From: an uncultured Eubacteriaceae bacterium
GTDB taxonomy: Bacteria; Bacillota; Clostridia; Lachnospirales; CAG-274
Length of the DNA: 60,741 nt
Reading direction: 5' to 3'
Assembly: GCA_948441255.1 (NCBI GenBank)
Contig: CAOJPS010000001.1
Coordinates: 1-60,741 of the forward strand
Position 1 is the stretch's first letter. Every line of letters begins with the position of its first letter. The translations under genes and the position numbers were made by a program. Below, piece after piece: positions 1 through 15,738 of the stretch. The notes under the pieces are model-generated. The model made no database searches and was not told where the DNA came from. It was given only the letters and a program-made list of their open reading frames with translations.

Positions 1-27
1 TTTATAATAATAAGATTTTTAGCCGCA

Positions 28-60
28 TAATTTCGCAGAATAATAAATTCTGCGAAATTA
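28..60. repeat. Perfect palindrome TAATTTCGCAGAAT-n5-ATTCTGCGAAATTA just 3' of the integrase gene
   Basis: Read directly. A related copy (TTTCGCAGA-n9-TCTGCGAAA) lies at 1415-1441 on the other side of int. Confidence 0.8.
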
Positions 61-103
61 TACTTGTATATTGTGTATTTATAGGGAATTTGGCATTTCA
101 TAA

Positions 104-1231
104 CTATTTTTTGACGGCTAATAAATCAGAAAGCTTATTCATATTTTTTTGTTTTAACTCCATTGACGGGTGAACATATCTATCTAATGTTATATTTACG
201 CTTGCGTGACCTAAAATCTCACTTAAACTTTTTATGTCAAATCCTATCTCAACACAGCGAGTAGCGAAAGTATGACGAAGTGCGTGAAAATTGGCGTCTT
301 TAATGCCACATTTTTTTATTGCCGCTTTAAAATGGTTCTGCAATGTCCGAGGTTCTAAAAACTTATTTTTACTCCCTGTCAATAAAAAAGCGTCCCTATG
401 ACACTCAATTTCCTGTAAAACACAATATAAGTTATTAGGAATAGGTATTTTTCTTATTGACGAGCAGCTTTTAGGAACAGAAACAATAACCTTTGTTTTA
501 GGGATTTCAGAATTACTTGTCTGCAATCTCTGCATTGTTTTGTCTACAGATATAAAGCGTTCTTCAAATGATATATCTTTCCACTTTAAAGCGCATACTT
601 CGCCTATTCTTATTCCTGTATACATACAAATTAGTATTCCTATGTTACATAAAGACTTATTATCACATAAGTATTGATTTAGTTTGTGCTGTTCTGAAAC
701 ACTTAAAATTCTCATAGGCTTAAATTCATGTTTTACATAAATTCCGCTGAAATCAGGTATATTTATATCCTCATTTTTTGAGGCGTATATAAAAATACTT
801 TTCAAAATAGATAAAATTCCGGATATAGTTCTTGATGACAGACCTTTTTTATTACCGCCGCTAAAATTTAATAGTTCATTATAAAAATCCATTATATCTC
901 TGCTGGTAATAGAATTAATTAATGACTTATCGAATTTTGGATAAAGATGTACTTTAAGAATATTACTATATTTTATGATACTTGATTCTTTAAGCCGAGA
1001 TTTTAAAGATTCCAGCCACTTTTCAGCCATAACTTTAAAATATATATTATTTGAACCTTTGTATGTTTCATTAATAGCCTTGATAAGCTTTTCTTTAGTT
1101 TCTTTATATGTTTTGCCATAGATATATCCGTATTTTGCTTTATTATCAGCAAATTCCTTAATATAGCGACCTTCCCATCTTCCATCTTTTCTTTTGTAAA
1201 TATTTTCTCCTTTTTTTGACACTTGTATCAC
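104..1231 (-). CDS. Tyrosine site-specific recombinase (phage-integrase family)
   Basis: The N-terminal SAM-like core-binding region begins KRKDGRWEGRY. The C-terminal catalytic region reads GIRIGEVCAL...HALRHTFATRC...LGHASVNITLDRYVH (R..HxxR..H..Y). The true start is possibly the GTG at 1222, 9 nt after GGGAGG. Confidence 0.9.
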   Translation of the reverse strand: MIQVSKKGENIYKRKDGRWEGRYIKEFADNKAKYGYIYGKTYKETKEKLIKAINETYKGSNNIYFKVMAEKWLESLKSRLKESSIIKYSNILKVHLYPKFDKSLINSITSRDIMDFYNELLNFSGGNKKGLSSRTISGILSILKSIFIYASKNEDINIPDFSGIYVKHEFKPMRILSVSEQHKLNQYLCDNKSLCNIGILICMYTGIRIGEVCALKWKDISFEERFISVDKTMQRLQTSNSEIPKTKVIVSVPKSCSSIRKIPIPNNLYCVLQEIECHRDAFLLTGSKNKFLEPRTLQNHFKAAIKKCGIKDANFHALRHTFATRCVEIGFDIKSLSEILGHASVNITLDRYVHPSMELKQKNMNKLSDLLAVKK

Positions 1232-1414
1232 CTCCCTTCTGACGCTTATTTTGACGGCTTATAAATTAAATTCACAAAATACTTATAGAAATTTATATAA
1301 AAATAACCTGTATATCTATGCAATTTAGATAAAAAGTATTTATGTAAACATACATTATTGACAAAATATTTTTTTTATGTTATATTAAAAATGATAAAGT
1401 GGATGTTGTTTTAC

Positions 1415-1441
1415 TTTCGCAGAATTTATTAATCTGCGAAA
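1415..1441. repeat. Palindrome TTTCGCAGA-n9-TCTGCGAAA between the int start region and the amidotransferase 3' end
   Basis: Read directly. It shares the TTTCGCAGAAT / TCTGCGAAA core with the palindrome at 28-60. Confidence 0.75.
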
Positions 1442-1573
1442 ATTGGTTTATTTAAGTATTGATTTTTGTATATCTTTAGTTTCAATTATAACTTTTAATA
1501 TATATTTTCATGGATAAAAAAGAAGTATCATTAATTTTGCTTTTTAATGACACTTCTTTTCTTGTATCCAATA

Positions 1574-2563
1574 TTAATCTAAATGCCCGTCAGCATTAAC
1601 ATCACACAAATAATGTTTTAGTATTTTCGGGTCATATAACAAATCCTCAATATCCGCATAGTCATATCCTATATCAAGCAAGTAATTAACTTCTGTTTCT
1701 GAAACGCCTATACTCTTAGCAAAATCAATGATATAGTTATAATACTCTTTTTCAAAATTCGGCTCTTTTTTATCTTTTTTAAAGAGAGAATAATCATCTA
1801 TACAGCCAAATTCATAACCTCTCAAATACTGATATTCCAGTAAATCAATACTTATTGTGTCAAATGTGTCTTTTTCAATTTTTCCGATTGATTTAATTTT
1901 TATTATGTCTCCGCAATTTATTTTAAGCTCGTTGTAATGTGATTTAATTTTTAATTTATTTAAAGCTTTATTCAAAATCTCTTTTGTGGAGGCGTAAATA
2001 TAAAATTTTCCAAAATTATAAACTGCCATAGGATTGTTACCTTTAACGATAAACATCTCATTTTTGTTATTCAAAACCGTAAAACAAAAAGAACCCTCAA
2101 CTTTTTCAGCCATAAATTTAAGACTGTCAAAGTCGAGGGTATTTTTCTTGTCAATAAGCTGCACAGCGATATATGTATCCGTTTGAATTTTAGTTTTCGG
2201 CAATTTTTCTTTTTTTCTTAAATCCTTGTCATTATAGATGATACCATTATGAGCGAGAGCGAAATCCAGCTTTTCAGAGTAAAACGGATGATTATTAAAA
2301 TTAAATTTTTCATTGCCTTGTGTAGTCATTCGAGTATGCCCCATAATTACTTTAGGATTACATTTAAATTTAAATCTCATTTTATGAGCGGGGAGAGGTT
2401 TTTTATAAATTTTGATATTATTTCTATTTTCATCAATATAAGCAATACCTGTTGCGTCTATGCCTCTCTGCTCACACTCAGCGGATAATACTTTTACAAT
2501 CTTTTCTTTCTGTCTTGCGGTAAAGAAGTTTTCATAGTCAATTATTCCAAATAAGCAGCACAT
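1574..2563 (-). CDS. Class-II (Ntn-type) glutamine amidotransferase domain protein with an uncharacterised C-terminal half
   Basis: The best start gives Met-Cys (MCCLFGIID...), with HTRMTTQG and HNGIIYN motifs typical of GATase_2. That ATG lies 1 nt from the upstream gene's stop, suggesting translational coupling. Confidence 0.75.
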   Translation of the reverse strand: MCCLFGIIDYENFFTARQKEKIVKVLSAECEQRGIDATGIAYIDENRNNIKIYKKPLPAHKMRFKFKCNPKVIMGHTRMTTQGNEKFNFNNHPFYSEKLDFALAHNGIIYNDKDLRKKEKLPKTKIQTDTYIAVQLIDKKNTLDFDSLKFMAEKVEGSFCFTVLNNKNEMFIVKGNNPMAVYNFGKFYIYASTKEILNKALNKLKIKSHYNELKINCGDIIKIKSIGKIEKDTFDTISIDLLEYQYLRGYEFGCIDDYSLFKKDKKEPNFEKEYYNYIIDFAKSIGVSETEVNYLLDIGYDYADIEDLLYDPKILKHYLCDVNADGHLD

Positions 2564-2564
2564 A

Positions 2565-3818
2565 TTATTCTTCCTCGCTTTCCTCATTTATTTCTACAGT
2601 TTCGTTTACATACAATTTTCTTTCTTTCAAATATTTAATAAGCTGTGGATATTTTTGTTTATCAAGTTCTGAAACAAATGTACTCCAAGCAAGACTTTTT
2701 ATTTCTGAATCGGACATATTAACCGCCGCTTCACATATAGCGTCAACCAACTGTATTGAAGCTATAAGAGTGTTATATTTAAGGGAGCCTTTGAATATTC
2801 TGATTTCGATAGTTGAATAGTTGGTAATATTCACACAGGCATATCTTCCGGTATAATTTTTCTTTGCGTCGTCAAGAATATCCATAGGCTCCTGTTTCCA
2901 GCCATATCTCTTAGCCCAGTGATTAAGCTGACTTTCTGTTCTCCTTGAAAATTTTAAAAGCTCATTCCAGTTACTCTCAAAGAAATATAATATTCTCGCA
3001 ATATATTCTTCTTGTTCTTTCGCTGTTTCTCCGAAAGCAGTACGATTTATGTGAATATGCAATCCAGATGTTGTTGTATCGTGACTTCTATAGTCAAGAC
3101 TCAGAGCAATTTTACAAATTTCATTCCACGGCATATTTTCCATATGATATTTTAAAGTCATAGGGTGAGTAACTATTTCCAATCCATCATTAAGAGAGCT
3201 GTCTGTCTTTATATAGATATTTTCAGTGTGTTTATTTGCGCATTCACATATTTCACGGGCATTTTCCTCGTCTTTTCCGCCGCCGTCTATTTCAAGCTCA
3301 CACCCGAAATATCTGTTTCCGCTCCCTTTAAAAACAGGGTCTGGTTTATAGCCATAATCGTGAAGATATTTTGAGTTGTTTTCCCGTTCATAGCAATCAT
3401 CACAATAAGGGTCTTGACCATAACCGTCATCAAGATAATTAGCGTCATCACTATGAAGTAATCTTCCGCATTCATAACATCTTGTATAATAGGTATCATA
3501 GCATTCCTGACACAAATCAATGTTATCATCACCGTAATTACATTCGTTTTCCTCACGCTCGTGACAGCAATCACAAACAAAAGACACTTCGTCAATACAG
3601 TCTGAGCAATAAACCTCATCATTTAATACATAGATTTCTTCTTCCGAAACTCTTTGTCCGCAATATGTACAAAGCTCAGATACTTCATCAATACAATCCT
3701 GACAATAATATCCATTATTAAAAACACAAGCGTCTTCCTTATCTATTTTTTTCTGACAATATAAACAAGTGACAATATTTTTTTCAATAACTTTTTCTTT
3801 CTCAATGATTTCATACAT
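2565..3818 (-). CDS. Amidoligase_2 (glutamine-synthetase-like COOH-NH2 ligase) family protein with an N-terminal 8x CxxC zinc-ribbon array
   Basis: ATG at 3818 is preceded by GGAGG (3826-3830 region). Eight CxxC pairs fall within about aa 18-150. The core motifs are FGCELEIDGGG, DSSLNDGLEIVTHP and SGLHIHINR. The longer ORF reaching 4040 overlaps the upstream gene and lacks an RBS. Confidence 0.75.
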   Translation of the reverse strand: MYEIIEKEKVIEKNIVTCLYCQKKIDKEDACVFNNGYYCQDCIDEVSELCTYCGQRVSEEEIYVLNDEVYCSDCIDEVSFVCDCCHEREENECNYGDDNIDLCQECYDTYYTRCYECGRLLHSDDANYLDDGYGQDPYCDDCYERENNSKYLHDYGYKPDPVFKGSGNRYFGCELEIDGGGKDEENAREICECANKHTENIYIKTDSSLNDGLEIVTHPMTLKYHMENMPWNEICKIALSLDYRSHDTTTSGLHIHINRTAFGETAKEQEEYIARILYFFESNWNELLKFSRRTESQLNHWAKRYGWKQEPMDILDDAKKNYTGRYACVNITNYSTIEIRIFKGSLKYNTLIASIQLVDAICEAAVNMSDSEIKSLAWSTFVSELDKQKYPQLIKYLKERKLYVNETVEINEESEEE

Positions 3819-3831
3819 AATAAATCCTCCG

Positions 3832-4134
3832 TTAATACTCTTCAGCAAGCAGCATTGTACAATAATCAAAATCATCAATAACAAAAATCTTATTCTCAAT
3901 AGAGCCGCCCTTTTCAACCGGAATAAATATTGTATTTTTATATTTAGGTTGTTCCTGTGAATGTGTAATCTGCTGAAATTCTTTGCCGCCAACGCTGATT
4001 TTTTTAAGTTCAAATACCTGTAAATAGTCTTGTTTTTCAACTTTCATAGACTTAATCATAGACCACATCAAGCTTTGCAAATAAAGTGAGATTTCTGAAT
4101 CAATTCCTTTTGTAATGTATTTTTTATCGAACAT
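3832..4134 (-). CDS. Small protein, DUF960-like (YITKGI...DYLQVFEL...ITHSQEQP pattern)
   Basis: A 100-aa ORF with GGAGG upstream. It is the first gene of the three-gene cassette. The family assignment is from memory of the DUF960 pattern only. Confidence 0.5.
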   Translation of the reverse strand: MFDKKYITKGIDSEISLYLQSLMWSMIKSMKVEKQDYLQVFELKKISVGGKEFQQITHSQEQPKYKNTIFIPVEKGGSIENKIFVIDDFDYCTMLLAEEY

Positions 4135-4172
4135 AACTGACCTCCTATTTTACATAAAAATTGCTTCAGTCA

Positions 4173-4216
4173 AAAAATCCCCTTTTGCTTATTAATCAAA
4201 GCAAAAGGGGATTTTT
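4173..4216. terminator. Perfect 16-bp-arm hairpin AAAAATCCCCTTTTGC-n12-GCAAAAGGGGATTTTT
   Basis: Read directly. A/T runs on both sides. It separates the COG2865-like gene from the amidoligase cassette. Confidence 0.6.
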
Positions 4217-4450
4217 TATAAACGCTGTCTGTTATTTTTTAATAATGTACTTCGCTAATTTAAAAGCTTGTTTTACTGATATACAAACTACTTTTTTTGT
4301 TACTTTGAATAAAATTTCTGCCATTTTAAACACCTCCATTCTGAAATTTGGGTACAAATGTGAATTCTATAAACTCACAAAATTATAATATATAATTAAA
4401 AATCTTAATTTTACGCTCATTATATATCCTTTGATTTATAAATTAATAAA

Positions 4451-4492
4451 AAAATCCGATTACTACTGTTTGTACAATAGCAATCGGATTTT
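4451..4492. terminator. Hairpin AAAATCCGATT-n20-AATCGGATTTT downstream of the COG2865-like gene
   Basis: Read directly, with flanking A/T runs. It lies about 70 nt 3' of the stop at 4560. Confidence 0.55.
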
Positions 4493-4559
4493 TAGTTTTT
4501 ATGATTTTCTCAATAATATTTATAAATTATAAAAAACTTTAAATTAAATATAAAACATT

Positions 4560-5555
4560 TTAATCATAATTTAAAACAAATTTTTCGCCAACTTTTATTC
4601 TTTTAAATGTATACTTGGTATATCTTCCATTTTTTATTTGCTCAATTTTACCTTTATCGCATAAATCTTTTAAAATCTTATATGTACTTGTTAAACCTAT
4701 ATCAAGTATTTCTTCGGCAATTTTTCTTGTAATAAAATCATTTTCTTTAATATAATTAAGTATTTTTATTTTGTACATTTCCTTTTTATCAGACGTATTA
4801 TTCATATGAGTTTTTTCTGTGCTGAACTTAGGCAATATTACCTTGAAAACTCCTTTTGACGCATTAAATAAAGGCTTTTTTTCTTTGTCAGCATATAAAT
4901 AATTAATTATACTTATTCCTGTCCCGCAATTTTCAATATATCCCATTTTACAGAATAAATCAGCAAGCTTTATATTTCTTGACTGTGAGGCACCCATTAA
5001 TACAGAATCCAACTCAAATTCATTTATTAATCCGCCTAAAGATATAAATTCTATTTTGTTATTATAGATGTTTATATTTGTGCTTCCGCTAAAGAAATAA
5101 TCTTTATGAATAACGCAGTTTAATAAAATTTCTTTTATACACTCTTTGGGATAGTTAATTATATTTGTTTTTTTTAATTCTAAAATATAATTATTTTTAT
5201 TGTAAAAGATTACAAAATCATAGGTATCTTGAAATTGCTTTAAAACGGAACCTGTAAACTCTTTTTTATGTGTAATAACTTTATTATTTTCCTCAAATAT
5301 ATTAACTCTTATTGTATGATTGCATTGGTCAGAAAGTAAAAACGCAAGATTAGTATATAAGCCCTCAATATTTTTTATATAAAACTTATTCATCTGACTT
5401 TTCCATTCTTTAATATAACGACTGCATATTTCTTTATCGAAATATTCAAATGTCAAATCTTGGTTTAGGCTTGTTCCTGTTTCATAGGATTCAGATTGTG
5501 TTATTGTATTATTATTTTTTCTAAATTCAATTTTGTTACTTTTACTTAAATGCAC
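4560..5555 (-). CDS. COG2865/Schlafen-group ATPase-fold (HATPase_c_4-like) putative transcriptional regulator with a C-terminal wHTH
   Basis: NCVIHKDYFFSGSTNINIYNNKIEFISLGGL, SQSRNIKLADLF and CGTGIS motifs. The C-terminal ITRKIAEEILDIGLTSTYKILKDLCDKGKIE looks like a wHTH. GTG start 8 nt after GAGGT. Confidence 0.55.
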   Translation of the reverse strand: MHLSKSNKIEFRKNNNTITQSESYETGTSLNQDLTFEYFDKEICSRYIKEWKSQMNKFYIKNIEGLYTNLAFLLSDQCNHTIRVNIFEENNKVITHKKEFTGSVLKQFQDTYDFVIFYNKNNYILELKKTNIINYPKECIKEILLNCVIHKDYFFSGSTNINIYNNKIEFISLGGLINEFELDSVLMGASQSRNIKLADLFCKMGYIENCGTGISIINYLYADKEKKPLFNASKGVFKVILPKFSTEKTHMNNTSDKKEMYKIKILNYIKENDFITRKIAEEILDIGLTSTYKILKDLCDKGKIEQIKNGRYTKYTFKRIKVGEKFVLNYD

Positions 5556-5643
5556 AATTTATAACCTCAATTCTTTTTCTTTTATCTTTCTTTTATATTT
5601 CTTTTATAATATCAAAAAGAAAAAGAATAATCAAGATTATTTT

Positions 5644-5826
5644 TTATAAATTAGATTCAATAAATTTAATTAAATCTTTTTTGTATATCTTCCAAAGCCT
5701 TTTATTTCCCAGTTTGAATCCTTTTAGTTTACCGCTTTTTAAATATCTTGATAAAGTTGGTCTGCTTATATTTAAAATTTTGCATACATCCTTAAAACTT
5801 AAAATTTCTGAATATTTATCAAACAT
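5644..5826 (-). CDS. Excisionase-type / MerR-superfamily HTH DNA-binding protein
   Basis: LSFKDVCKILNISRPTLSRYLKSGKLKGFKLGNKRLWKIYKKDLIKFI. The ATG at 5826 has GAGGT 8 nt upstream and overlaps the end of the upstream gene. Confidence 0.7.
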   Translation of the reverse strand: MFDKYSEILSFKDVCKILNISRPTLSRYLKSGKLKGFKLGNKRLWKIYKKDLIKFIESNL

Positions 5827-6979
5827 ATAAATGAACCTCATTTCTTCCCTTACATTTTTTCTTTGCTGTTTTATAATATTTTATTTCAGTATCGGAAATC
5901 TCTTTAAATCCTAAAAGTGAGTCGGGCGACTGTATAAAACCAATATTTTCTATTGTAACAGGTATTGGATTTAATCCCATTTCCTCAAAACAATTTTGAA
6001 TATTATCATATACATCCATACTGTTAAACAAATTTATTCCCACTGTTTTTAAATCATATTCACAGTTTTTTTCACAGTATCTCAATAATTTTATCATTTT
6101 GTTTTTACGTTTTTTCTTTCCGTTCTGTTGTTTTTCAATTATTTTTTCAGCAAGATAACTTCCGGTATAACAACAGGCAGTTGAACATTTAATCATAGCA
6201 TTATATATACTGCGAACACTTTGTTCCATCTTATTATAAAGCATACATAATACACCATAAGTATCTTCATTATTTGTATATCTTCTGATATATTTACGCT
6301 CACATCTAAGTTCCATACGCAAGGTATTATGATAAAAATCTACAATATCTTCAGGATAGCCTCTGTCGATAGCAGCTTTATGTTTATTATATAAAACAAA
6401 CTCTACGCCTTTAGATTTACTTAAAACATTATAGGAATCCTCTCTGCTGAATTTATCGCATTTTTCCTCTAATTTGGTATTAAGTCTATAACCCTTGCAC
6501 AACGGCATTCTTCTCATAATAAGTATAAACTGCTTTATTATATTTTCGTGTATTTCTTTTATGTCTTTTGTAAAATCAATTCTGCTAAGATTAAAGTCGT
6601 TTACGTCAATAGCATTATTAATAATATTCCCCAAAATTTCCGCAATAAATTTATTTAGTCTTTTAATAGCTATTATAAACTCATATATATCATTAATACT
6701 GTTTTTATATGTACCTTCTTCTATCAGACGTGACGGATTAACCTGTATTATAAGTTTATAACACATATCATATGTATATTTAAGCTTTTCTTTATCTGTA
6801 CATTTTCTAAATGTAATAATAATCCCTTTATCAACATAAGCTGTGGACGTAAAAGGATATAATTTACTATTTCCCGCTGTTCTGTCAGGAAAACAATCAA
6901 GAGTTTCCTTTAAATTATTATATTCCTCAAATGTAATTATTTTGTTAATTTCAAATGTATGTATAAAAAATATACTCAT
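5819..6979 (-). CDS. Hypothetical protein, possibly a rolling-circle type replication initiator
   Basis: LSRIDFTKDIK and LRMELRCERKYI resemble RxD...D and RxE(L)R blocks of Rep_trans / gene II-X type initiators. It sits in the position of rep in an int-xis-rep module. This is a weak call. Confidence 0.35.
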   Translation of the reverse strand: MSIFFIHTFEINKIITFEEYNNLKETLDCFPDRTAGNSKLYPFTSTAYVDKGIIITFRKCTDKEKLKYTYDMCYKLIIQVNPSRLIEEGTYKNSINDIYEFIIAIKRLNKFIAEILGNIINNAIDVNDFNLSRIDFTKDIKEIHENIIKQFILIMRRMPLCKGYRLNTKLEEKCDKFSREDSYNVLSKSKGVEFVLYNKHKAAIDRGYPEDIVDFYHNTLRMELRCERKYIRRYTNNEDTYGVLCMLYNKMEQSVRSIYNAMIKCSTACCYTGSYLAEKIIEKQQNGKKKRKNKMIKLLRYCEKNCEYDLKTVGINLFNSMDVYDNIQNCFEEMGLNPIPVTIENIGFIQSPDSLLGFKEISDTEIKYYKTAKKKCKGRNEVHLYV

Positions 6980-7247
6980 AAAATACATTCCTTTCTTTTA
7001 TTTCTTTTTTATAATAATGTTGTAAAATAATAAAAATTAATATATCATTATTTTTCATAAACATATTTATAATAAATATTAGTTTAAATAATACCCAATA
7101 AATCATATATAGTATATAAAATACAGTACATATTATAAAGCAATAATATTTGGGGCAGAGGGGCTATCTACTGTTTAGAGGATAAATATGGCGGGAAAAA
7201 CTATATATATTTGCCTGAATTATTTTTTTTAAAAAATTATTTTAAAA

Positions 7248-7280
7248 AAAGTAGTATTTTCGTTATAAAAATACTACTTT
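7248..7280 (-). terminator. Rho-independent terminator of the 935-aa gene (AAAGTAGTATTTT-n-AAAATACTACTTT)
   Basis: A 13-bp stem, followed on the minus strand by a T-run (plus-strand A7 at 7244-7250). Confidence 0.7.
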
Positions 7281-7329
7281 TACCACATTGTGAAAAATAA
7301 TGTTTATAAAATTTTTTATATGAAGAGTT

Positions 7330-10137
7330 TTATTTTTTCTGTTTCAACACATTTTGTTTATGTAAATTTTGAAGATATGTCCAGAAATAATTTATATTTT
7401 TATATTTACCAATATCAATATTCTTAGAATTATCGTTAAACAATATTTTATTTACCGCTTCTAAGTAAAACATTATCAATTCTTTATGTTCTTTTTCTTT
7501 TTCAATTTCTTTATCTTTTTCAGTTTCTTTATCTTTTTTTGTTTTTTTAGTTTTTTTAATATTCTTGTCTTTTTCAGCTTCCTTAGCCTTTTTGGCTTCC
7601 TCCGCCTCCTTAGCTTTCTTAATTTTTTTGGATTCAATAATTATTTTTTGGGTTATATTTTTCCAGATTTCAAGACATATCCAAAAATGTTCTGTATTTT
7701 CAAATTTATCAAGTGAAATATTGTTATATTCAAATAACAAATTATTTACTTTATCTAAGTAGATTTTTTTATTGTTTTTAGATATTGCGCTTTTTTCATA
7801 TTCATAATTTATTTTTTCCCTTATATCGTTCCATATTTGTAAACATTTTCTAAAATACTCTGTATTTTTATATTTAATTAAATTATCCTCATCAGTAATT
7901 AGTACCTCGTTTGCTTTAGTTAAAAATTTTTTTATTTGTTTTTTAGAAATTATTTCATCATTATACTCATTATTTAATTCTCTTGAGATATTCTTTTTAA
8001 TTTTAGTTGATATATTTTGACACTTTTGAAGATATCTCCAGAAATAGTTTATATTTTTATATTTATATAGAGAATTTGTACTGGTGTTAAACAATAATTT
8101 ATCTATTCTGTCTAAATGATTTTTCTTCTCTTCATCAGACAATAAATTTTCTTCACATTCATTAATTATTTTTATTGATATATTATTCCAAATTTCCAAG
8201 CACTTTAGAAAATAATCTTTTTGTTCGTATATATCTAAAAAATATTCATTATTTTTAAATAATACTTCATCAGATTTTTCTAATAATTTAATTGCTGTAT
8301 TATCAGATATTTCATTATTTGAAAATTTATCCAATAATATATTTCTTGTTTTTACCCATATCTTTTGAGCTTGTATATATTTATCAAAAACAAAAAGATT
8401 ATCCTGATTTGATGGACTAATCCTTGCGATTCTTTTTTCTATTCGTTTTCGTATAGTTTCAGCAAAATTTCTAACTAAGTCATTTTTATTTTTTAATTCC
8501 CAGCCCACGTCTTTACATATTTTATTTTTAGAAAAAATATATTTGCAATATTTATCTTTTAATGTTTCAATCTTAAAAGGTTTATGGCAATTTTCACATA
8601 ACTTTATTAAATCTTTTTCTTCAAGTATATGCAGCAAAAACGCCCCTATAAGCTCTTCAACATATGAAAATACATAAGCGTTTAGCGTACTCATATTAAT
8701 AAAGTCCCCAACAAGGTTATAGATATTTTTATAGTCTTTTATATTTACAATCTCATTATTTTTAATTTTAGAACTAACCTTTGTAATTGTTCTTTTTATT
8801 TTTTGTTCTCTTTTAACTTTTTCAATTTCAAAGAAAAAGTTAATACGGCTATTATCATCTATATTTCTTAAATTGGATATAATATTAATTGTTTTATAAT
8901 CTTCTTTTTTTATTTCTTCTTCATAAAATATTCTTTCTTTTTCTGAATTATCAGAATTGTCCTGAGCAATTATTTCTAATACTTTTTTCAAAATACCTAT
9001 GCTTTTTTTCAAGGATAAAATAGGCGATAGGCTTTCATTTGATATATTATATTTATAATCCCTTATTATTTCTAATATATCAAAATCTTCAATTTCAAGA
9101 TTTTTTTGAACCCATTCCTCAATAACATTCGCATAGAACAATAATTTTGTATAATATAAATCAGATATATTATTGTTTTCATTAAATAAGTTTATTAGGT
9201 ATATATAAGCGATTTGTTTAAAAAACAAAATAATGTAATATGGATATGTTTTATACTTGATATAATAAGTCTTTTTATATCTAAGCAACAAATCCATATT
9301 AGGAACGCTTTTTTTAAAATCAAGAATTGCTTTAAAAATATCATCTTTTGATGTATTCTCTATTTTTAATAAGTTTGATATTATATTTTCGGAATATTCA
9401 AAGCTTTCGATATTATCTATAATTCGGCAAATATTAATTATATCATTTGTATTATAATATATTTTTTCATTTGAATTAAGTTCTTTTTTATTACACCATA
9501 CCTCAACGCCTGTATCTTCCAGTCTTACTATATAACTTTCATAGTTATAGTTTATAGATTCCACAAAATAGCTTTTTATTTTCTGAGTTTTTTTATAAAA
9601 TAAATTTTCTGTTTTTTTTAACTTTAGATATATTTTATCTAATGGAGTTAATACTGTTTTATTTAACAACTCAAAATCAGGTTTAAATATATCGTCTATA
9701 AGTTTTTTATGAAATATGTATTTATTTTTCTCGTTTGTGTTTAGGTTATTATAATACTTAAAAAATTGACTGTAAAAAACATTAGAATATAACTTATTTA
9801 TATTATTATTTTGAGACTCAAAGTCATACAAAAATCTTAAATTTAAAAATCTCAAATAATTTTTAAATTTAATTAAGATTGAATCTAAATTTTCTTTTGT
9901 AGGCTTTGGTATTTTTAGAAAATCAAAAAAACATTTTTCAGCGTTTCTTAAAGATAAATTACTTTCTTCTAATATTTTTATGATTTTACTTTTATTAGTT
10001 CTGGAAATAGGGTTATCTTCTATTATTTCTTTTCTCTCAAAATATTTCATTTTATTGTCAAACTCGTATTCACGATAATATATTGCCTCTTCGTCTACTT
10101 CATCTTTAATTTCCATAATTTTTATTTCCTTTCGCAT
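7330..10137 (-). CDS. Large orphan protein (935 aa) with a Cys cluster, five to six C-terminal ~65-aa repeats and a Lys/Glu-rich tract
   Basis: A long uninterrupted ORF in 22%-GC DNA. Repeats have the form ...LLF(N/E)...YKN(I/T)(N/E)YFW.CL(E/Q)IW.NI..KI... The Cys cluster is CENCHKPFK..YCKYIFSKNKICKD. I recognise no enzymatic motif. Confidence 0.7.
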   Translation of the reverse strand: MRKEIKIMEIKDEVDEEAIYYREYEFDNKMKYFERKEIIEDNPISRTNKSKIIKILEESNLSLRNAEKCFFDFLKIPKPTKENLDSILIKFKNYLRFLNLRFLYDFESQNNNINKLYSNVFYSQFFKYYNNLNTNEKNKYIFHKKLIDDIFKPDFELLNKTVLTPLDKIYLKLKKTENLFYKKTQKIKSYFVESINYNYESYIVRLEDTGVEVWCNKKELNSNEKIYYNTNDIINICRIIDNIESFEYSENIISNLLKIENTSKDDIFKAILDFKKSVPNMDLLLRYKKTYYIKYKTYPYYIILFFKQIAYIYLINLFNENNNISDLYYTKLLFYANVIEEWVQKNLEIEDFDILEIIRDYKYNISNESLSPILSLKKSIGILKKVLEIIAQDNSDNSEKERIFYEEEIKKEDYKTINIISNLRNIDDNSRINFFFEIEKVKREQKIKRTITKVSSKIKNNEIVNIKDYKNIYNLVGDFINMSTLNAYVFSYVEELIGAFLLHILEEKDLIKLCENCHKPFKIETLKDKYCKYIFSKNKICKDVGWELKNKNDLVRNFAETIRKRIEKRIARISPSNQDNLFVFDKYIQAQKIWVKTRNILLDKFSNNEISDNTAIKLLEKSDEVLFKNNEYFLDIYEQKDYFLKCLEIWNNISIKIINECEENLLSDEEKKNHLDRIDKLLFNTSTNSLYKYKNINYFWRYLQKCQNISTKIKKNISRELNNEYNDEIISKKQIKKFLTKANEVLITDEDNLIKYKNTEYFRKCLQIWNDIREKINYEYEKSAISKNNKKIYLDKVNNLLFEYNNISLDKFENTEHFWICLEIWKNITQKIIIESKKIKKAKEAEEAKKAKEAEKDKNIKKTKKTKKDKETEKDKEIEKEKEHKELIMFYLEAVNKILFNDNSKNIDIGKYKNINYFWTYLQNLHKQNVLKQKK

Positions 10138-10173
10138 TAAAACTCAACTTTTATTTTTTGTTTTTTAAATAAA

Positions 10174-10212
10174 ATGTCTCCATATTTTTATGGCTAAATA
10201 TACTGGAGACAT
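10174..10212. promoter_or_regulatory. Inverted repeat ATGTCTCCA-n21-TGGAGACAT in the divergent control region
   Basis: Read directly. It ends 17 nt upstream of the candidate -35 box. Confidence 0.4.
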
Positions 10213-10229
10213 CGCTTATAATAAATACG

Positions 10230-10258
10230 TTGACCCCTCTTGATTTTTATTTTATACT
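10230..10258 (+). promoter_or_regulatory. Near-consensus sigma-A type promoter (TTGACC-17 nt-TATACT) facing the 204-aa gene
   Basis: Hexamers and the 17-nt spacing were counted directly. Confidence 0.5.
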
Positions 10259-10438
10259 AACTATCGAAAGCAGGAATATTACTTATAAAATTCCTTGAAT
10301 TTCATTTTAAAGCTTTAAGATAAAGATTAATTATGTTAAAAATATCTCCATTTTATTATTAATTTTATCATAAATAATCTATAATATCAAGGTATACCTA
10401 AATACAAGTTTAAGTAAATTAACAAGGAGGAATTATTA

Positions 10439-11053
10439 ATGAATAAAAATGATAGGAAACTTATTAATAAATTATTAAAAGCATTGGATTTAAAAGAGGA
10501 ATATGTTGAGCATAAAGCTTTAAACACCGCTGTTCAGAATGATTTGGAAACAAACATCTCTGAGAAGTCTCACTCTAATGAAAGCTATGATAAAATTACC
10601 AAAAGCATAGATATAGCGAAACAACGCAAATTAGCTGATGATATACAAAATATTGATGATTTTCAGAAATTTAAAGATAATATAATTCAAAAATTTCAGT
10701 TGCTTTTGGAATTAAAAAAGAATATTAATTCAAAAATCAAGCCTTCTTTAAAGTCAACTAAAAACGAAGTCAAAACAATAAAAAGTAAAATAAAAATAAT
10801 AACAGCGGATATTAAAGATTTATTTTCAATTACCTCTGATTTAAAAGCTGATATTAAAGATTATGAAAAAACAGTAAAATCTAACGCAAAGGATATTAAA
10901 GAAATCAAGGAGACTTTACAAAAAATAGCTATTTTACAGGGAATAATCTCTTCCGGTGATGATTTTGAGGATATAAAGAAATCAGCAAAGAAAACGCTTC
11001 GTGCCTCAAAAATTAACAATGAAAATCAGTTTTTTAAAAATATACGTTTTTAA
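10439..11053 (+). CDS. Hypothetical coiled-coil protein (204 aa)
   Basis: AAGGAGG RBS. The sequence is Lys/Asp/Ile-rich with heptad-like segments (ADIKDLFSITSDLKADIKDYEKTVKSNAKDIKEIKETLQKI). Confidence 0.6.
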   Translation: MNKNDRKLINKLLKALDLKEEYVEHKALNTAVQNDLETNISEKSHSNESYDKITKSIDIAKQRKLADDIQNIDDFQKFKDNIIQKFQLLLELKKNINSKIKPSLKSTKNEVKTIKSKIKIITADIKDLFSITSDLKADIKDYEKTVKSNAKDIKEIKETLQKIAILQGIISSGDDFEDIKKSAKKTLRASKINNENQFFKNIRF

Positions 11054-11089
11054 ATAATTATGTTTAAAATTTGAAAGGAGCTGGATTTT

Positions 11090-12706
11090 ATGTCAGAAAA
11101 AAATTATTCTGTTAAAGAAAAATTTGCGGACAATGGCTGTATTAATTTTAAAATCAGTATTATTGAAAAAGAAATAATAAGAGATATTAAAGGAAATAAC
11201 ATAGCCGTAAAATTTTTAGTATGCGTAAAATATCCAGATGGGAAAGAGTGTAAAAAGTGGCTGGAGGATTTAACGAATATAGACTATTTTAAAGAGTTTG
11301 GAATAATTGATGTATTATTTACTTCTAAATTAAGAAAACAACTCTTAGAAACTCTTTTTGTTGAGGCAAATAAGGCGAAAACAATATATAAAATTAAAGT
11401 AAGTTCTGGTTATCAGGTTATTAATTATACACCATTATTTGTTTTTGGAAATAATTTTTACTGGAGTAAAGATATTAAAGAAGAGCTTCAAATAAACTCC
11501 CCTTATAATATTACATTGAGCAGTAAAGATGTTTTTAATGAAGATTTCCTGTCAACTTTAGAAAGCTATATGAATCTTTTACCGTGTGTAACAGAGCTTC
11601 TCTTTTATACAGCAGAGTTTGCCATAGTGAAACAATTTATCGAAAAATCTGGAATAAAATGTAGTTTTGCCACTGTTTTTATAGCCACTTCCGGACACTT
11701 AAAAACAACATTATCAGAGTTATTTTATCTTTGGCTTGATGATATCAAAGAGCAGACAATTAAGTTTTTTAATCCTCCAAAAAATAAAATTTTATTTGAT
11801 AAAATTGATTCTCTTTTGGGACTAAATCTTTTATTTGACGACCTTAGAATAATTGATAATACCTATGATAATAAAAAACAAGCACGAAATCTTGATAATG
11901 CTGTAAGGTATGCCGCAGAGGATGGAAAAGCTAATCTAATTATTACAGGAGAAACCATCGAATCTGTTGGAATATTTAGTTGTCTTGACAGAGTTTTTCA
12001 GATTTACATAAAGGAAATGAAAGCTTCTGAAATAAGGGAATTAAAAATTCGCCTGACAAACTTAAAGAAAAATTTTATGCCTTATGTTTCGGCAATGTTT
12101 GCGGAAGTATTAATAAAAAACCATAATGAGGTTATTCAATTTATTAAAGATTTTTATACTGCGAATAATAACAAAGTCTATATAGAACACGAATATGTCA
12201 CCAGAACAGAACGTTACGCAATGTTTATTAAACTGACACAAAAATTATTTGTTAAATATATTTTAAGAAACTACCCAGAAATAAATAATCTTAATGATAA
12301 TTTTGAAAAAGCGCTTAAATACCAAACCACACACCATATTAATATGCTTCAAAAGAAAAAAATTGCTGAAACAGAAACTAATTATATAATTCTATTTTAT
12401 TACGCTATATTTGAGAATAGTTCTATCAAAATACTTGAAGAACCGAGGGAATATTTAGCTAATGAGGGTACTTGCTGCGTTAATGATAAAGGTCAGCTAT
12501 TTATAACTCGTGAAACATTAGAGCAAGCGTTTCAAAAGTATTATGAAAAAAATATTTATATTAATATTAATAAATTAATCAAAAAGTTTAATCAAGAAGG
12601 TTTATTATTTTTAGATACAAGCAGCAGAGGCTATCAAAAAAATTATAAACAGAAAAAACATTATGTTATAAATTTAAAACTTTTATCAAGCAAACTTAAA
12701 GAATAA
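11090..12706 (+). CDS. Hypothetical protein (538 aa) with a degenerate P-loop-like segment
   Basis: AAAGGAG RBS. ATSGHLKTT (Walker-A-like, but lacking the GK glycine) is followed about 45 aa later by LNLLFDDL (Walker-B-like). It may be a DUF927/D5-like helicase relative; this is very tentative. Confidence 0.55.
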   Translation: MSEKNYSVKEKFADNGCINFKISIIEKEIIRDIKGNNIAVKFLVCVKYPDGKECKKWLEDLTNIDYFKEFGIIDVLFTSKLRKQLLETLFVEANKAKTIYKIKVSSGYQVINYTPLFVFGNNFYWSKDIKEELQINSPYNITLSSKDVFNEDFLSTLESYMNLLPCVTELLFYTAEFAIVKQFIEKSGIKCSFATVFIATSGHLKTTLSELFYLWLDDIKEQTIKFFNPPKNKILFDKIDSLLGLNLLFDDLRIIDNTYDNKKQARNLDNAVRYAAEDGKANLIITGETIESVGIFSCLDRVFQIYIKEMKASEIRELKIRLTNLKKNFMPYVSAMFAEVLIKNHNEVIQFIKDFYTANNNKVYIEHEYVTRTERYAMFIKLTQKLFVKYILRNYPEINNLNDNFEKALKYQTTHHINMLQKKKIAETETNYIILFYYAIFENSSIKILEEPREYLANEGTCCVNDKGQLFITRETLEQAFQKYYEKNIYININKLIKKFNQEGLLFLDTSSRGYQKNYKQKKHYVINLKLLSSKLKE

Positions 12707-12832
12707 AAAATTTTTTAAATCTGAGCGTTAAGCGTATAAACAGCTATTTTAATTATGCAATATATACATATTATAGTAATAATTTTATTATTATTATATA
12801 TGCCGATTTTAATAAAAGGAGGTTATGTACAT

Positions 12833-13003
12833 ATGTATACATCTATTCTACACAAGGCTGACGGCTGTATAGATATTGACTCTGAAATTATAAAATTTAG
12901 AGCGAAGCTTACAGCTAAGAGACTTGCCGATATGGGTATAAATCAAGAAAATATTAAATTGCTTTTAAATAAAGATAAGTATATAAACCAATTTACTAAA
13001 TAG
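12833..13003 (+). CDS. Small hypothetical protein (56 aa)
   Basis: ATG 10 nt after AAAGGAGG. The upstream part of the 82-aa ORF is hydrophobic junk without an RBS. Confidence 0.4.
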   Translation: MYTSILHKADGCIDIDSEIIKFRAKLTAKRLADMGINQENIKLLLNKDKYINQFTK

Positions 13004-13010
13004 AAAATTT

Positions 13011-13046
13011 TCCTTGCTATGGTTATATATTTTATCATAGCAAGGA
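13011..13046. promoter_or_regulatory. Perfect 11-bp-arm hairpin TCCTTGCTATG-n14-CATAGCAAGGA, 27 nt upstream of the recombinase start
   Basis: Read directly. No T-run follows it. Confidence 0.45.
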
Positions 13047-13072
13047 TAAAATATATAAGAGGGAGGAAAATT

Positions 13073-15352
13073 ATGATAAGTGAACCTAAAATCGCTATTT
13101 ACGCAAGAAAGTCAAAATTAACAGAAACAGGAAAATCTATCGATAATCAGATATCTAAGTGCAAAGCTTATGCTTTTTTGAAATTTGACGCAGGCGATAA
13201 TGATATAGAAATATATCACGATGATGGAAAATCAGGATTTTATGCTGACAGACCGGAATATTTAAAAATGCTTAAAGATATTGAAAAAGGTAAAATAAAA
13301 GCTGTTATATGCTATAAATTTGATAGAATTTCAAGGCGTACACTTGATTTGCTTAATTTAGTAGAAAGATTAAAGTCAAAGAAAATAACTTTTGTATCGT
13401 GTTCTGACGATATTGATACAAGCTCTAAAACAGGCAAAGTATTAATGAGTATGTTAGCGATTATAGCTGAGTTTGAACGAGATATTATAGCTGAAAGAAT
13501 ATCCGATAATCTTTATGAATTATCAAAAGAAGGGCGATGGCTTGGCGGTGTAACACCAACCGGATTTTATTCTAAAAAAGAATCAATTATGCTGCACGGA
13601 AGAAAATCAACTGTAAATCACCTTGAACCTATACCCGAAGAGCTTATTGCGGTAAAAAAAATTTATGAAATATTTTTACAAAAACATTCAATAAATGAAA
13701 CGGTAAGATACACTTTAAAAAATAATATCCTCACAAAAAACAATAAAAATCATACGGAAATAAGCATTAAAAATATACTTTCAAATCCTGTATATGCCAT
13801 AGCGGACGAAGATATTTACAATTACTACACTGAAAAGGGAATAGTGCTTTATGCTGAAAAAGAAAACTTTAACGGTATAAATGGCTTAATGGTATACAAT
13901 AAAACTCAGCAGATTAAAGAGCTTAAAGATGACAGTGTTACTTTAAATCCTAAATATATTCATAAAAACTCAGCAAAAAAACGTGAAGACTGGGTTATTT
14001 CCGTAGGAAAACACAAGGGTATTATACAAGGGCGTGACTGGATAGCCGTTCAGGAAACTTTAGCTGAAAATAAAAGCAAATACGCAAGACCAAATAAAAA
14101 AACAAACGCTCTTTTAGGCGGTCTTATCGTTTGTCCTGTATGCGGTAAAAATATGTATGCGCATAAAGAAAACAGGCGCTTTGAGCAAAATGGAGAACCA
14201 AGATTTGTTTATCGTTGTTCCTCAAGAAAGTATGATACAACGGCTTGTACATATAAACCGCTGAGAGGCAGTGTTATCGACAAATTTATTCTTGATACTT
14301 TATGTAAGATTGGAAGTAAAAATTCGGATGAATACTATAAAGCTCTTGAAGATGAAATCAAGCTAAACAGTTATAACGCTTTGCGAGATGAGGAATCAGA
14401 ACTTCAAAAAAAAATAAAGCGGCTTAAATCAGAATTACAGTCACAAATTGAAAATTTACGAATCGCCTCAGGAGCGTCAAAAGAATTTATAATGGCTGAT
14501 ATAAATAAATTGTCAAATGAAATAAAAGTTTATGAAAATCAGCTTAACCAAATACAAGAGAATAAAACAAGCGATACAACAACTCTTAAAGGTTTGGAAA
14601 AAGCGAGAGAATTAATAAATTCTTTTGAGAATCTGATTGATACTATGACTTATGAGGAAAAACTGGAGCTTGTACGGCTAGTTATAGCTAAAGTATATGT
14701 TATAAACAAAGATAATATTACTGATGAAAATGGTAAAAATGTCCCAAATGACGAAGTACATATTTTTCTGAAAGGTATACCAGAAGAAAATTATGAGGAA
14801 TTCTTCAAAAATATAAATCCTATAAAACGGGATTTACAGCAAAATAATGAGAATATTAAGGCTCAGCCCCATTCAAAAGGGGTTGAGCTTTTATTTTGCC
14901 GTAATTCTGATAATGCGCTTATGACATTAATTCACATTATATTACCCATTAAAGAACTTTCAGACAATCCTACGATTGGCGAAAAAATAAAATATTATCG
15001 TTTTATAAATAATCTTACACAGGAAGATTTAGCTAAATTATTAAATATAAGCCGTACTACAATAATAAAATATGAAAATAGTGAGCTTTCTGTCCCTCTA
15101 AATGTTCTAAATAAAGCGGCTGAACTATTTAATATTCCTTCTGATTTTCTTTATGATGATTACAGTTCTTTCTTAGCGTATCCTTGTTCCAAGAAAATAA
15201 AGGAAATACGCAAAAAAGAAAATCTAACACAACAGAAATTGGCTGATAGTCTTAATGTAAGTAAAAAAACAATAAAAACTTGGGAAAGCGGAAGAGGGTT
15301 AATATCCAGAGAGAATTTTCAAAAGTTAAAAAAATTATATCTTAATAATTAA
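13073..15352 (+). CDS. Large serine recombinase (SpoIVCA-like) fused to two C-terminal XRE-type HTH domains
   Basis: GGGAGG RBS. The resolvase domain includes IAIYARKSKLTETGKSIDNQ, ICYKFDRISRR and LAIIAEFERDII. A recombinase domain follows, then a zinc ribbon (CPVCGKNMYAH...YRCSSRKYDTTAC) and a coiled coil. After that come IGEKIKYYRFINNLTQEDLAKLLNISRTTIIKYENSE and IKEIRKKENLTQQKLADSLNVSKKTIKTWESG. Confidence 0.9.
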   Translation: MISEPKIAIYARKSKLTETGKSIDNQISKCKAYAFLKFDAGDNDIEIYHDDGKSGFYADRPEYLKMLKDIEKGKIKAVICYKFDRISRRTLDLLNLVERLKSKKITFVSCSDDIDTSSKTGKVLMSMLAIIAEFERDIIAERISDNLYELSKEGRWLGGVTPTGFYSKKESIMLHGRKSTVNHLEPIPEELIAVKKIYEIFLQKHSINETVRYTLKNNILTKNNKNHTEISIKNILSNPVYAIADEDIYNYYTEKGIVLYAEKENFNGINGLMVYNKTQQIKELKDDSVTLNPKYIHKNSAKKREDWVISVGKHKGIIQGRDWIAVQETLAENKSKYARPNKKTNALLGGLIVCPVCGKNMYAHKENRRFEQNGEPRFVYRCSSRKYDTTACTYKPLRGSVIDKFILDTLCKIGSKNSDEYYKALEDEIKLNSYNALRDEESELQKKIKRLKSELQSQIENLRIASGASKEFIMADINKLSNEIKVYENQLNQIQENKTSDTTTLKGLEKARELINSFENLIDTMTYEEKLELVRLVIAKVYVINKDNITDENGKNVPNDEVHIFLKGIPEENYEEFFKNINPIKRDLQQNNENIKAQPHSKGVELLFCRNSDNALMTLIHIILPIKELSDNPTIGEKIKYYRFINNLTQEDLAKLLNISRTTIIKYENSELSVPLNVLNKAAELFNIPSDFLYDDYSSFLAYPCSKKIKEIRKKENLTQQKLADSLNVSKKTIKTWESGRGLISRENFQKLKKLYLNN

Positions 15353-15390
15353 AAGAGATACCTTATTTGCTACATTTGCTTAACTGAGCC

Positions 15391-15738
15391 TCATATAGCA
15401 TTTTCAATACATCTTGCAGCGTAGGTCGCAAGTTTTGTACCCTTGTTATTTTTAAAGGTTGTGACGGCTTTAATCAGGCCTATGGTTCCGACTGAAATTA
15501 AATCTTCGCTGTCTTTGCTGTAATTGGGATATTTTTTTACTATGTGCGCTACAAGTCTTAAGTTGCGTTCCACTAGTATACATTTTGCCTCATTTTTTTC
15601 CTCATCATTTCCGTTTTGAATTTGAAAAAGCCATTTATCTTCTTCCTCAGCCGTTAATGGCTTTGGAAACGCTCCTCCTGTTGAAATGTGTGAAAAAATA
15701 AAAAAACTCTGCAAAAATCCCAAAATCGCGAAAACCAC
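15391..15738 (-). CDS. sigK: 5' segment of sigK (pro-sigma-K, spoIVCB-like), truncated by the island after ...GTKLATYAARCIEN
   Basis: GTG start after GGAGGTG. A short hydrophobic pro-sequence precedes FPKPL, ERNLRLVAHIVKKY, DLISVGTIGLIKAV and GTKLATYAARCIEN. The frame then reads AI-stop instead of the conserved EILMHLR continuation. Confidence 0.85.
   Translation of the reverse strand: MVFAILGFLQSFFIFSHISTGGAFPKPLTAEEEDKWLFQIQNGNDEEKNEAKCILVERNLRLVAHIVKKYPNYSKDSEDLISVGTIGLIKAVTTFKNNKGTKLATYAARCIENAI

Follow-up and report, generated by a model that had tools for sequence, protein, structure and literature searches.

A probable skin-type island in sigK of an uncultured Eubacteriaceae bacterium, with its attachment sites and an empty-site allele

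Reconstitution of a gene by excision of a skin (sigK-intervening) element is a textbook programmed DNA rearrangement. The mechanism of skin elements has been established experimentally in Bacillus subtilis and Clostridioides difficile (PMC5025042, PMC6957869). Excision of the 14.6-kb C. difficile element, skinCd, in the mother cell requires a small directionality factor controlled by sigma-E/SpoIIID (PMC5025042). The two known directionality factors are encoded close to their recombinases: Skr at the 5' end of spoIVCA in B. subtilis, and CD1234 near CD1231 in C. difficile (PMC6957869, PMC5025042). [quoted passage not shown] Comparable events occur at other loci. Thus, SPbeta in spsM, gin in gerE, yin in yabG and the Anabaena fdxN element (XisF) are excised by serine recombinases from a terminally differentiating cell, which rebuilds the interrupted gene, as would be the case for the island described here; they differ from it in target gene and recombinase lineage. 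Like this island, gin is not prophage-like (PMC5595907).

The window analyzed here, meaning the whole stretch of 60,741 nt, is one whole contig of 60,741 bp. Its positions 1-15398 very probably belong to a sigK-intervening (skin-type) genomic island that runs off the left contig end. The island fits the description of Galperin et al. (10.1101/2022.02.25.481979). In that survey, the recombinase gene usually adjoins the 3' fragment of sigK, whereas here it adjoins the 5' fragment, as in B. subtilis. The island part of the window has a GC content of 26.5%, versus 35.8% for positions 15399-60741. A first-pass annotation, made from the sequence alone, had described a sharp drop in base composition on the recombinase side; the fall is real but gradual, with 30.6% GC across the recombinase gene and a minimum of 23% at 7-13 kb. 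The chromosome side of the window is ordinary, encoding PcrA/UvrD, NAPRTase, the ATP synthase operon and IMPDH.

The minus-strand ORF at 15391-15738 encodes a 115-aa protein that begins at a GTG codon and ends in Ala-Ile-stop (...ATYAARCIEN-AI-stop). As the first-pass annotation had judged by eye, it is a pro-sigma-K with the motifs FPKPL, ERNLRLVAHIVKKY, DLISVGTIGLIKAV and GTKLATYAARCIEN, an assignment borne out by Pfam, NCBIfam and tblastn. Specifically, the ORF matched Pfam Sigma70_r2 at 1.4e-14 (profile positions 1-61 of 71) and two NCBIfam SigK models at ~1e-42, with a weaker match to SigE (~1e-31). Residues 4-114 of B. subtilis SigK aligned to it at 53% identity, including the pro-sequence, which corresponds to B. 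subtilis residues 4-27. Judged by these matches, the resemblance to SigK is not due to chance. The SigK match covered only positions 12-115 of 235, the first half of the profile. The sigK 5' segment (15400..15738, minus strand) thus comprises codons 1-113 of pro-sigma-K, from the pro-sequence through region 2 to ...ARCIEN. The Ala-Ile-stop indeed stands where sigma-K/E proteins continue EILMHLR, and the gene is broken at nt 339-340, between codons 113 and 114, with island-only sequence from 15398. A tblastn search with B. subtilis SigK found no sigK 3' half in the 60,741-nt window, in agreement with the first-pass annotation. The only region-4 match, at 54324-54866, was considered for this role and rejected, as it lies in a distinct sigma-70-family protein of 180 aa whose domains are all of region 4.

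A large serine recombinase (LSR) is encoded on the plus strand at 13073..15352 (759 aa, taking the ATG at 13073 as the start; the mechanical ORF begins at 13019). The gene is convergent with the sigK 5' segment and ends at 15352, 38 nt before the stop of the sigK ORF at 15391, the tail-to-tail arrangement that had first been noticed. The protein contains Resolvase (1.9e-36), Recombinase (1.5e-14) and Zn_ribbon_recom (6.8e-12) domains and the catalytic motif Y-x-R-x-S, as IYARKS, at residues 9-14 of the 759-aa protein. It matched the PHROG 95 integrase at 5e-102 and scored 139 bits on the XisF model, below the cut-off of 375. The nearest phage integrases, those of Clostridium phages CP51 and HM T and of Terrisporobacter phage TPELB_ph1, are 30-36% identical. 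Identity to B. subtilis SpoIVCA is 24% over the full length. From residue ~630 to 760, the protein carries an uncommon C-terminal extension with two XRE-type HTH_3 domains, which SpoIVCA (500 aa) does not have. Among 50%-identity representatives, a single match running through this extension was found in a few relatives only (P0377, P0383 and P0478). The LSR gene is intact, with the same architecture, in three independent metagenome assemblies. It was assembled independently as a 759-aa gene in two contigs (L002 and L013), and the recombinase-XRE fusion is therefore real. The XRE domains hint at control outside the sporulation cascade.

Two complete small elements with the same break as the window and with both sigK halves served as the model for the far end of the island. 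As far as could be found, both are unannotated and uncharacterized. In the first (L005; Alkaliphilus chromosome, CP058557.1), a convergent gene for a 552-aa LSR comes after the 5' fragment, and the 3' fragment lies 5.59 kb downstream. In the second (L010, 5.57 kb; MAG GCA_964308995.1), the LSR is at the attR end beside the 3' fragment, whereas that of the window is at the attL end. Both elements share with the window the form of attL, the AAAT centre, palindromic P and P' arms and the recombinase clade: identity to the window's LSR is 35% for L005 and 70% for L010, the latter over window residues 19-599 in the numbering of the 777-aa ORF. They differ from it in being about three times smaller, in carrying other cargo and in having recombinases without the XRE extension. 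Their attL reads TGTAT(T/A)GAAAAT|GCTAT... and their attR ...ATAG(C/A)AAAT|GAAAT..., and the island-side arms are mutual inverted repeats around AAAT. Accordingly, before the 3' half was seen, the far end of the island was predicted to carry the reverse complement of GCTATATGAGGCTCAGTTAAGC, with a read-through peptide of approximately LTEPHIANEILM.

A search with the C-terminal half of the L010 protein yielded a sigK 3' half (P0244) that starts MRLTETHIENEILMNLRSGKK. The peptide observed across its P arm was RLTETHIENEILM, against the predicted LTEPHIANEILM. The first-pass annotation had proposed looking for this segment to the left of the window; a 3' half does exist, and its island arm is the inverted repeat of the arm in the window. 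P0244 is encoded on five short contigs, attR having been assembled in five samples. Two of its contigs come from ERZ14650993 and ERZ14651009, samples that also contain attL contigs identical to the window's sigK-5'/recombinase junction, with ~3x coverage in every case. Shared samples and matching arms, rather than a single contig, connect the two sigK halves.

Comparison of the two junctions defined the attachment sites. On the minus strand of the window, attL reads ...GCAAGATGTATTGAAAATGCTATATGAGGCTCAGTTAAGC..., and attR reads ...GCGCTTAACTGAGACTCATATTGAAAATGAAATCCTAATG.... The 11-bp attL core, TATTGAAAATG (15399..15409, minus strand), is identical at attR and in the empty site described below, and the crossover must lie inside it. 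The break that had been placed at about 15397-15402 by eye agrees with this position. The P' arm, GCTATATGAGGCTCAGTTAAGC (15378..15399, minus strand), pairs as an inverted repeat with the P arm, GCTTAACTGAGACTCATATTGA, at attR (L278-L282); the arms are complementary at 19/22 positions (binomial P ~7e-8). From this symmetry we infer that the crossover falls at the central AA of AAAT, 15401-15402. A short identical core within imperfect inverted repeats is typical serine-integrase geometry. Every Clostridial attL junction examined starts GCTAT after GAAAAT.

An empty site was found through cluster membership; an attempt to reach it via the neighbouring aminotransferase gene returned occupied sites only. 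Specifically, the 90% cluster of P0244 also includes the window's 115-aa fragment and a 231-aa protein, P0362, which is an intact SigK. P0362 is encoded on a 1,691-bp contig (L283) of the conspecific MAG GCA_948574535.1, where sigK is flanked by the same aminotransferase and ABC-transporter genes as the two junctions. Positions 1-616 of L283 correspond to 16014-15399 of the window at 99.84% identity, positions 606-1677 correspond to the attR flank at 99.35% identity, and the overlap of the two alignments is exactly the 11-bp core. These alignments fix both boundaries to the base and make the island a discrete insertion. Relative to the island strain, L283 has 1 SNP per 616 bp on one flank and 6-7 per 1,072 bp on the other; based on these few SNPs, it represents a sister strain without the island rather than an excision product. 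Joining the two halves in silico gave a 231-aa SigK without a stop, one residue (A29T) apart from P0362. This composite scored 304.4 bits on NF004471 (cut-off 252), 296.3 bits on TIGR02846, just under the cut-off of 298.65, and 225 on SigE. Read from these alignments, the element is a discrete, LSR-integrated island whose precise excision would rebuild sigK. Both junctions and the empty site thus back the original proposal of an island that exceeds 15 kb, interrupts sigK and has a large serine recombinase at its edge, in the manner of spoIVCB/spoIVCA/skin. The first-pass annotation had also suggested defining the att junctions and comparing a close relative that lacks the island, and had named two outcomes that would count against it: that no 3' segment exists or that the ORF is a full-length unrelated protein. 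Both tests came out in its favour, with the two halves linked across contigs as described above.

These data bear on two further explanations of the locus. According to the first, the junction is an assembly chimera, a suspicion raised by the MAG origin of the contig and by the island extending beyond its end. This is effectively refuted: independent assemblies of three ENA samples contain the same aminotransferase/sigK 5'/recombinase junction at 99.9-100% identity, those of five samples contain attR, and the junctions follow serine-integrase att geometry. According to the second, the insertion is a dead end: the recombinase has lost the ability to excise the island, and sigK is a permanent pseudogene in a lineage that has ceased to sporulate. 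The exact composite SigK is absent from a collection of 15 billion proteins, which therefore holds no excision product of the island-bearing strain, and look-ups of the 5' junction in ERZ14650993, ERZ14651013 and ERZ14651009 returned the occupied state only, as this explanation would have it. We nevertheless consider a dead end quite improbable. Both sigK halves are free of further lesions, being 99.3-99.8% identical to the intact allele with one amino acid change per 231; the recombinase ORF is intact in independent assemblies with all three catalytic and DNA-binding domains; and the att arms are still symmetric at 19/22 positions.

We compared the insertion site with those of the known elements. 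The B. subtilis junction was established from sequence, using a search with the N-terminus of B. subtilis SigK. The spoIVCB product is a 156-aa protein (P0123; cluster name, B. subtilis RNA polymerase sigma-K factor / spoIVCB peptide precursor) that reads ...ARCIENEI|VITKGG, and the DNA keeps GAG ATT after AAT. Its locus (L011) has nucB upstream and, downstream, a convergent gene for a 500-aa recombinase (spoIVCA) and ars genes, neighbours that identify it as skin. Thus, in B. subtilis skin (spoIVCB, spoIVCA, skr ... spoIIIC) as in the window, sigK is split inside the CIENEILM motif in region 2.4, the recombinase gene adjoins the 5' fragment convergently, the N-terminal pro-sequence of SigK is kept, and a short identical core lies in imperfect inverted repeats of ~21-22 bp (PMC5025042). 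The break is at CIENEI| in B. subtilis and at CIEN| here, a difference of two codons; the core reported for B. subtilis is 5 bp, versus 11 bp here; and the recombinases are only 24% identical. At the nucleotide level, the two insertion sites overlap with an offset of ~6 nt, the divergence here coming right after AAT-G. By this comparison of sequences, the insertion site is not meaningfully different from that of B. subtilis skin, with an offset crossover and distant recombinases. The first-pass annotation had stated that the insertion point differs from those of known elements. Against B. subtilis this is overstated, as the offset is two codons within the same motif; it does hold for C. difficile, C. 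tetani and PhiS63. SkinCd (CD1231 and CD1234), the C. tetani skin element and PhiS63 are likewise LSR elements in sigK of Clostridia, but the PhiS63 site is at nt 427, in the 3' part of sigK, and those of skinCd and skinCt are similar (PMC3442830), whereas the break in the window is in region 2.4. Further, C. difficile SigK is made without a pro-sequence (PMC5025042), whereas SigK here has one, and the orientation of skinCd is opposite to that of this island.

Among uncultured Clostridia, CIEN|A is a very common junction, yet elements of this kind appear to be unstudied. In the 120 N-terminal fragments that best match that of the window, 106 breaks come right after CIEN, and 98 of these are followed by Ala; in the corresponding list of fragments from Bacilli, the breaks occur one to four residues later. 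The fragment lists seem biased towards short proteins, so they show that many fragments exist rather than what fraction of sigK genes is split. For the same reason, the conclusion that most sigK genes are split, suggested by match lists made up entirely of short proteins, was rejected. A scan of genome contigs with TATAGMAAATGARATHYTNATG was likewise set aside as a count of split genes, because the M in the pattern admits intact sigK/sigE genes in which Ile is encoded by ATA (TGT ATA GAA AAT GAA); among the at least 120 matches listed, all but two (L026 and L092) were uninterrupted genes, and the genome of the window was not represented. In these two, the LSRs at the attR sites are ~35% identical to that of the window. 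An example of a pattern that excludes intact genes is GAAAATGCTAT after the ARCIEN codons. In JGI metagenomes, a window-specific attR pattern gave 24 matches; seven proved to be genuine attR sites belonging to other elements, and this island was not among the 24.

The island is at least 18.3 kb long, comprising 15,398 bp in the window and 2,895 bp on a contig from its far end (L279), without overlap between them. Because the window and the attR contigs do not overlap, this length is only a lower bound. A look-up with the terminal integrase for a leftward extension returned a single 1.7-kb contig that ends at window position 76.

Within the window, the co-oriented minus-strand genes at 104..6988 look like a nested integrative module, judging from their profile matches. 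They encode a tyrosine integrase (104-1231), a glutamine amidotransferase (1574-2587), an amidoligase (2565-4040), DUF960 (3832-4134), a HATPase_c_4 protein (4560-5555), an HTH_17 excisionase-like protein (5644-5841) and a Rep-like protein (5819-6988), the last with a weak Pfam match (E = 4e-4) just below the curated cut-off. Next are three orphan genes: one for a 935-aa Asn/Lys-rich protein (7330-10137, minus strand) in DNA of 20-25% GC, and two on the plus strand for proteins of 204 aa (10439-11053) and 538 aa (11090-12706). Searches of Pfam, PHROGs and PADLOC gave nothing significant for the genes of 7330-12706. At the attR end (L278/L279), the far part of the island, of at least 2,895 bp, carries a predicted Septu pair of adjacent, co-oriented genes (PADLOC: PtuA, 4.5e-126; PtuB, 1.9e-46). 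The pair ends 6 nt short of the ORF of the sigK 3' half, whose start precedes the attR core by 20 nt; in L279, PtuB is shortened. [quoted passage not shown]

A 56-aa ORF with the ribosome-binding site AAAGGAGG lies directly upstream of the LSR gene in the same orientation (12833..13003, plus strand). It aligns end to end and without gaps with a 58-aa ORF in the corresponding place in L010 (30% identity, E = 3e-10), that element also having a small ORF upstream of its recombinase. A small ORF, skr, likewise lies just upstream of the B. subtilis recombinase gene (PMC6957869); skr overlaps spoIVCA, whereas the 56-aa ORF does not overlap the LSR gene. Searches with family profiles gave no match for the 56-aa protein, which has no homology to Skr or CD1234. 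Because the Skr and CD1234 genes occupy comparable places beside their recombinase genes, the 56-aa protein is probably, from its position, a candidate recombination directionality factor. Between the small ORF and the recombinase ribosome-binding site, at 13012..13045, the sequence contains a hairpin with a perfect 10-bp stem (CCTTGCTATG / CATAGCAAGG), which could be an operator or an attenuator.

Based on these features, the LSR encoded at the edge integrated a circular element into sigK, its attP being a 22-bp imperfect inverted repeat around TATTGAAAATG and its target attB lying within the C-I-E-N-E codons. Integration left the 5' segment in the window and separated it by at least 18.3 kb from the 3' segment, which is on another contig. 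The same LSR, recombining attL with attR and probably directed by the 56-aa protein, would release the island as a circle and rejoin ...TGT ATT GAA AAT | GAA ATC CTA ATG... to encode the 231-aa pro-sigma-K. The attB junction expected after excision is ...TGTATTGAAAATGAAATCCTAATG... (synthetic attB, ...GCAAGATGTATTGAAAATGAAATCCTAATGAACC...), and the attP expected on the circle is ...CTCATATTGAAAATGCTATATGAG... (synthetic attP, ...AACTGAGACTCATATTGAAAATGCTATATGAGGCTCAGTT...). By analogy with B. subtilis and C. difficile, developmental excision in the mother cell is likely: the island would be lost from this terminally differentiating cell and kept in the spore germ line. As SigK retains its pro-sequence, activation would, as in B. 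subtilis, require proteolytic processing in addition to excision.

How excision is controlled is where a further explanation enters. The island may instead be an ordinary integrative element, a prophage remnant or mobilizable island, that uses sigK as a conserved attB and is excised through its own regulators, such as the LSR-fused XRE domains, or under stress, and not by the mother-cell sigma factors; sporulation would then need occasional excision or be impaired. PhiS63 of C. perfringens sets a precedent, being a functional phage with sigK as attB (PMC3442830). Several features of the island point the same way: the two XRE HTH domains on the recombinase, the homologous XRE proteins encoded by separate genes beside att in two other elements (L008 and L258), and the second integrase/excisionase/Rep module in the cargo. 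In addition, inspection by eye of the 20-30% GC DNA upstream of the small ORF and of sigK gave no callable sigma-E/sigma-K type promoter, which also favours this explanation. A promoter-like CATATTATA at 12768-12776 was rejected, as it has no correctly spaced -35 and partial matches are meaningless in DNA so AT-rich. Weighing against an ordinary element, no phage structural genes were seen among the 18.3 kb of island, and IMG/VR contained no match to its exact 20-nt attP or to its recombinase protein. In viral contigs, most matches to a generic 16-nt attP were due to chance, with a recombinase match at 6/120 of the loci listed, and a 23-nt attR pattern gave one chance match only. These negative searches provide no evidence that the island is a known virus. 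Moreover, >100 protein clusters across Clostridia retain the same junction, a pattern more readily understood if carrying the element does not preclude sporulation. We therefore regard an ordinary element as unlikely, though it deserves more weight than a dead end. It does not exclude the skin-type reading, as SPbeta does both (PMC4191935).

For the skin-type reading, a broader interpretation is possible, which we offer tentatively and as rather doubtful in its entirety. The CIEN|EILM site of Clostridia may be served by a serine-integrase clade of its own, ~24% identical to SpoIVCA, that converged on the same dozen bp as B. subtilis skin. The element may be a defence and mobility island, with Septu and a nested integrase module, and not a decayed prophage, and the fusion of its integrase to an XRE-type repressor may allow one protein both to sense or regulate and to excise. 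Region 2.4 of sigK might then be a general 'safe harbour' that is discarded only in the mother cell and is open to elements of several origins.

The known principle of skin elements is unchanged by this island, which adds one more example, this one with both att sites fixed to the base, an allele of the empty site and a candidate directionality factor. Because the att sites are known to the base, the skin hypothesis is directly testable. Secondary features of note in this island are its Septu genes, the fusion of XRE domains to the recombinase and a junction of a Clostridial class that is very common but unstudied. The fusion suggests a wiring of excision to a repressor-type input. Finally, skin-type islands can carry predicted anti-phage systems such as Septu, which would pass to the spore line and be lost from the mother cell.

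The large serine recombinase that adjoins the sigK 5′ segment (13073-15352) ends in two XRE-type helix-turn-helix domains at residues ~630-760. The recombinase of the related 5.57-kb element L010, which is 70% identical to that of the window, lacks these domains, and matches spanning the XRE extension were limited to a few of the 50%-identity representatives (P0377, P0383, and P0478). In other elements, XRE proteins homologous to the tail are encoded by standalone genes adjoining att (L008:10354-10938 and L258:1684-2100). The same type of tail lies beside attL in L004, the element of the closest relative, whose sigK fragment is 86% identical. There it is frameshifted (L004:10401-10885), reflecting either decay or an assembly error. 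Between the 56-aa ORF and the ribosome-binding site of the recombinase lies a hairpin (13012-13045) whose 10-bp stem pairs perfectly. The stem includes TTGCTATG, similar to the beginning of the island arm, ATGCTATATG, and the hairpin could be a recombinase binding site or an attenuator.

At the left end of the window, two similar palindromic hairpins (TTTCGCAGAAT...ATTCTGCGAAA; 27-61 and 1412-1441) flank a tyrosine integrase gene (104-1231). The window's own contig stops at position 1 and an independent contig, L001, at position 76, suggesting a repeat or variable joint at this end. Three neighbouring genes (1574-4134), for a glutamine amidotransferase, an amidoligase rich in Cys (PHROG 16683, 1.2e-86), and a DUF960 protein, are reminiscent of peptide-ligase cargo in mobile elements. 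Further along, DNA of ~20% GC encodes a 935-aa Asn/Lys-rich protein (7330-10137) that had no match in Pfam, PHROGs, or PADLOC; its sequence looks to contain internal repeats.

The far end of the island, which lies outside the window, carries a Septu anti-phage pair encoding PtuA (438 aa) and PtuB (205 aa) on two metagenome contigs (L278:482-2399 and L279:1016-2741). The ORF for the sigK 3′ half has its ATG 6 nt past the end of this pair, and the attR core follows 20 nt downstream of that start. Compared with L278, L279 lacks ~63 bp, which leaves PtuB at 141 aa; the defence gene therefore differs among samples.

Besides sigK, the sole sigma-like match within the window was a minus-strand gene (54324-54866) for a 180-aa sigma-70-family protein, possibly of ECF type. 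It contains only Sigma70_r4_2 and Sigma70_r4 domains and is not related to sigK. Beyond the window, intact sigK genes and likewise intact sigE genes of many Firmicutes contain the sequence TGTATAGAAAATGAAAT(H)(Y)TNATG, 22 nt in length (among the matches listed, loci L014-L133). The core target is thus common to the two sigma genes, and recombinases must tell sigK apart via the outer arms. Finally, one fragment in the Clostridia-type list, P0105 (among the best 120 matches), is broken between ENEI and FMTKG. Because this junction and its arm (TKGG) are of the B. subtilis type, the Bacillus-type element may also be present outside Bacilli.
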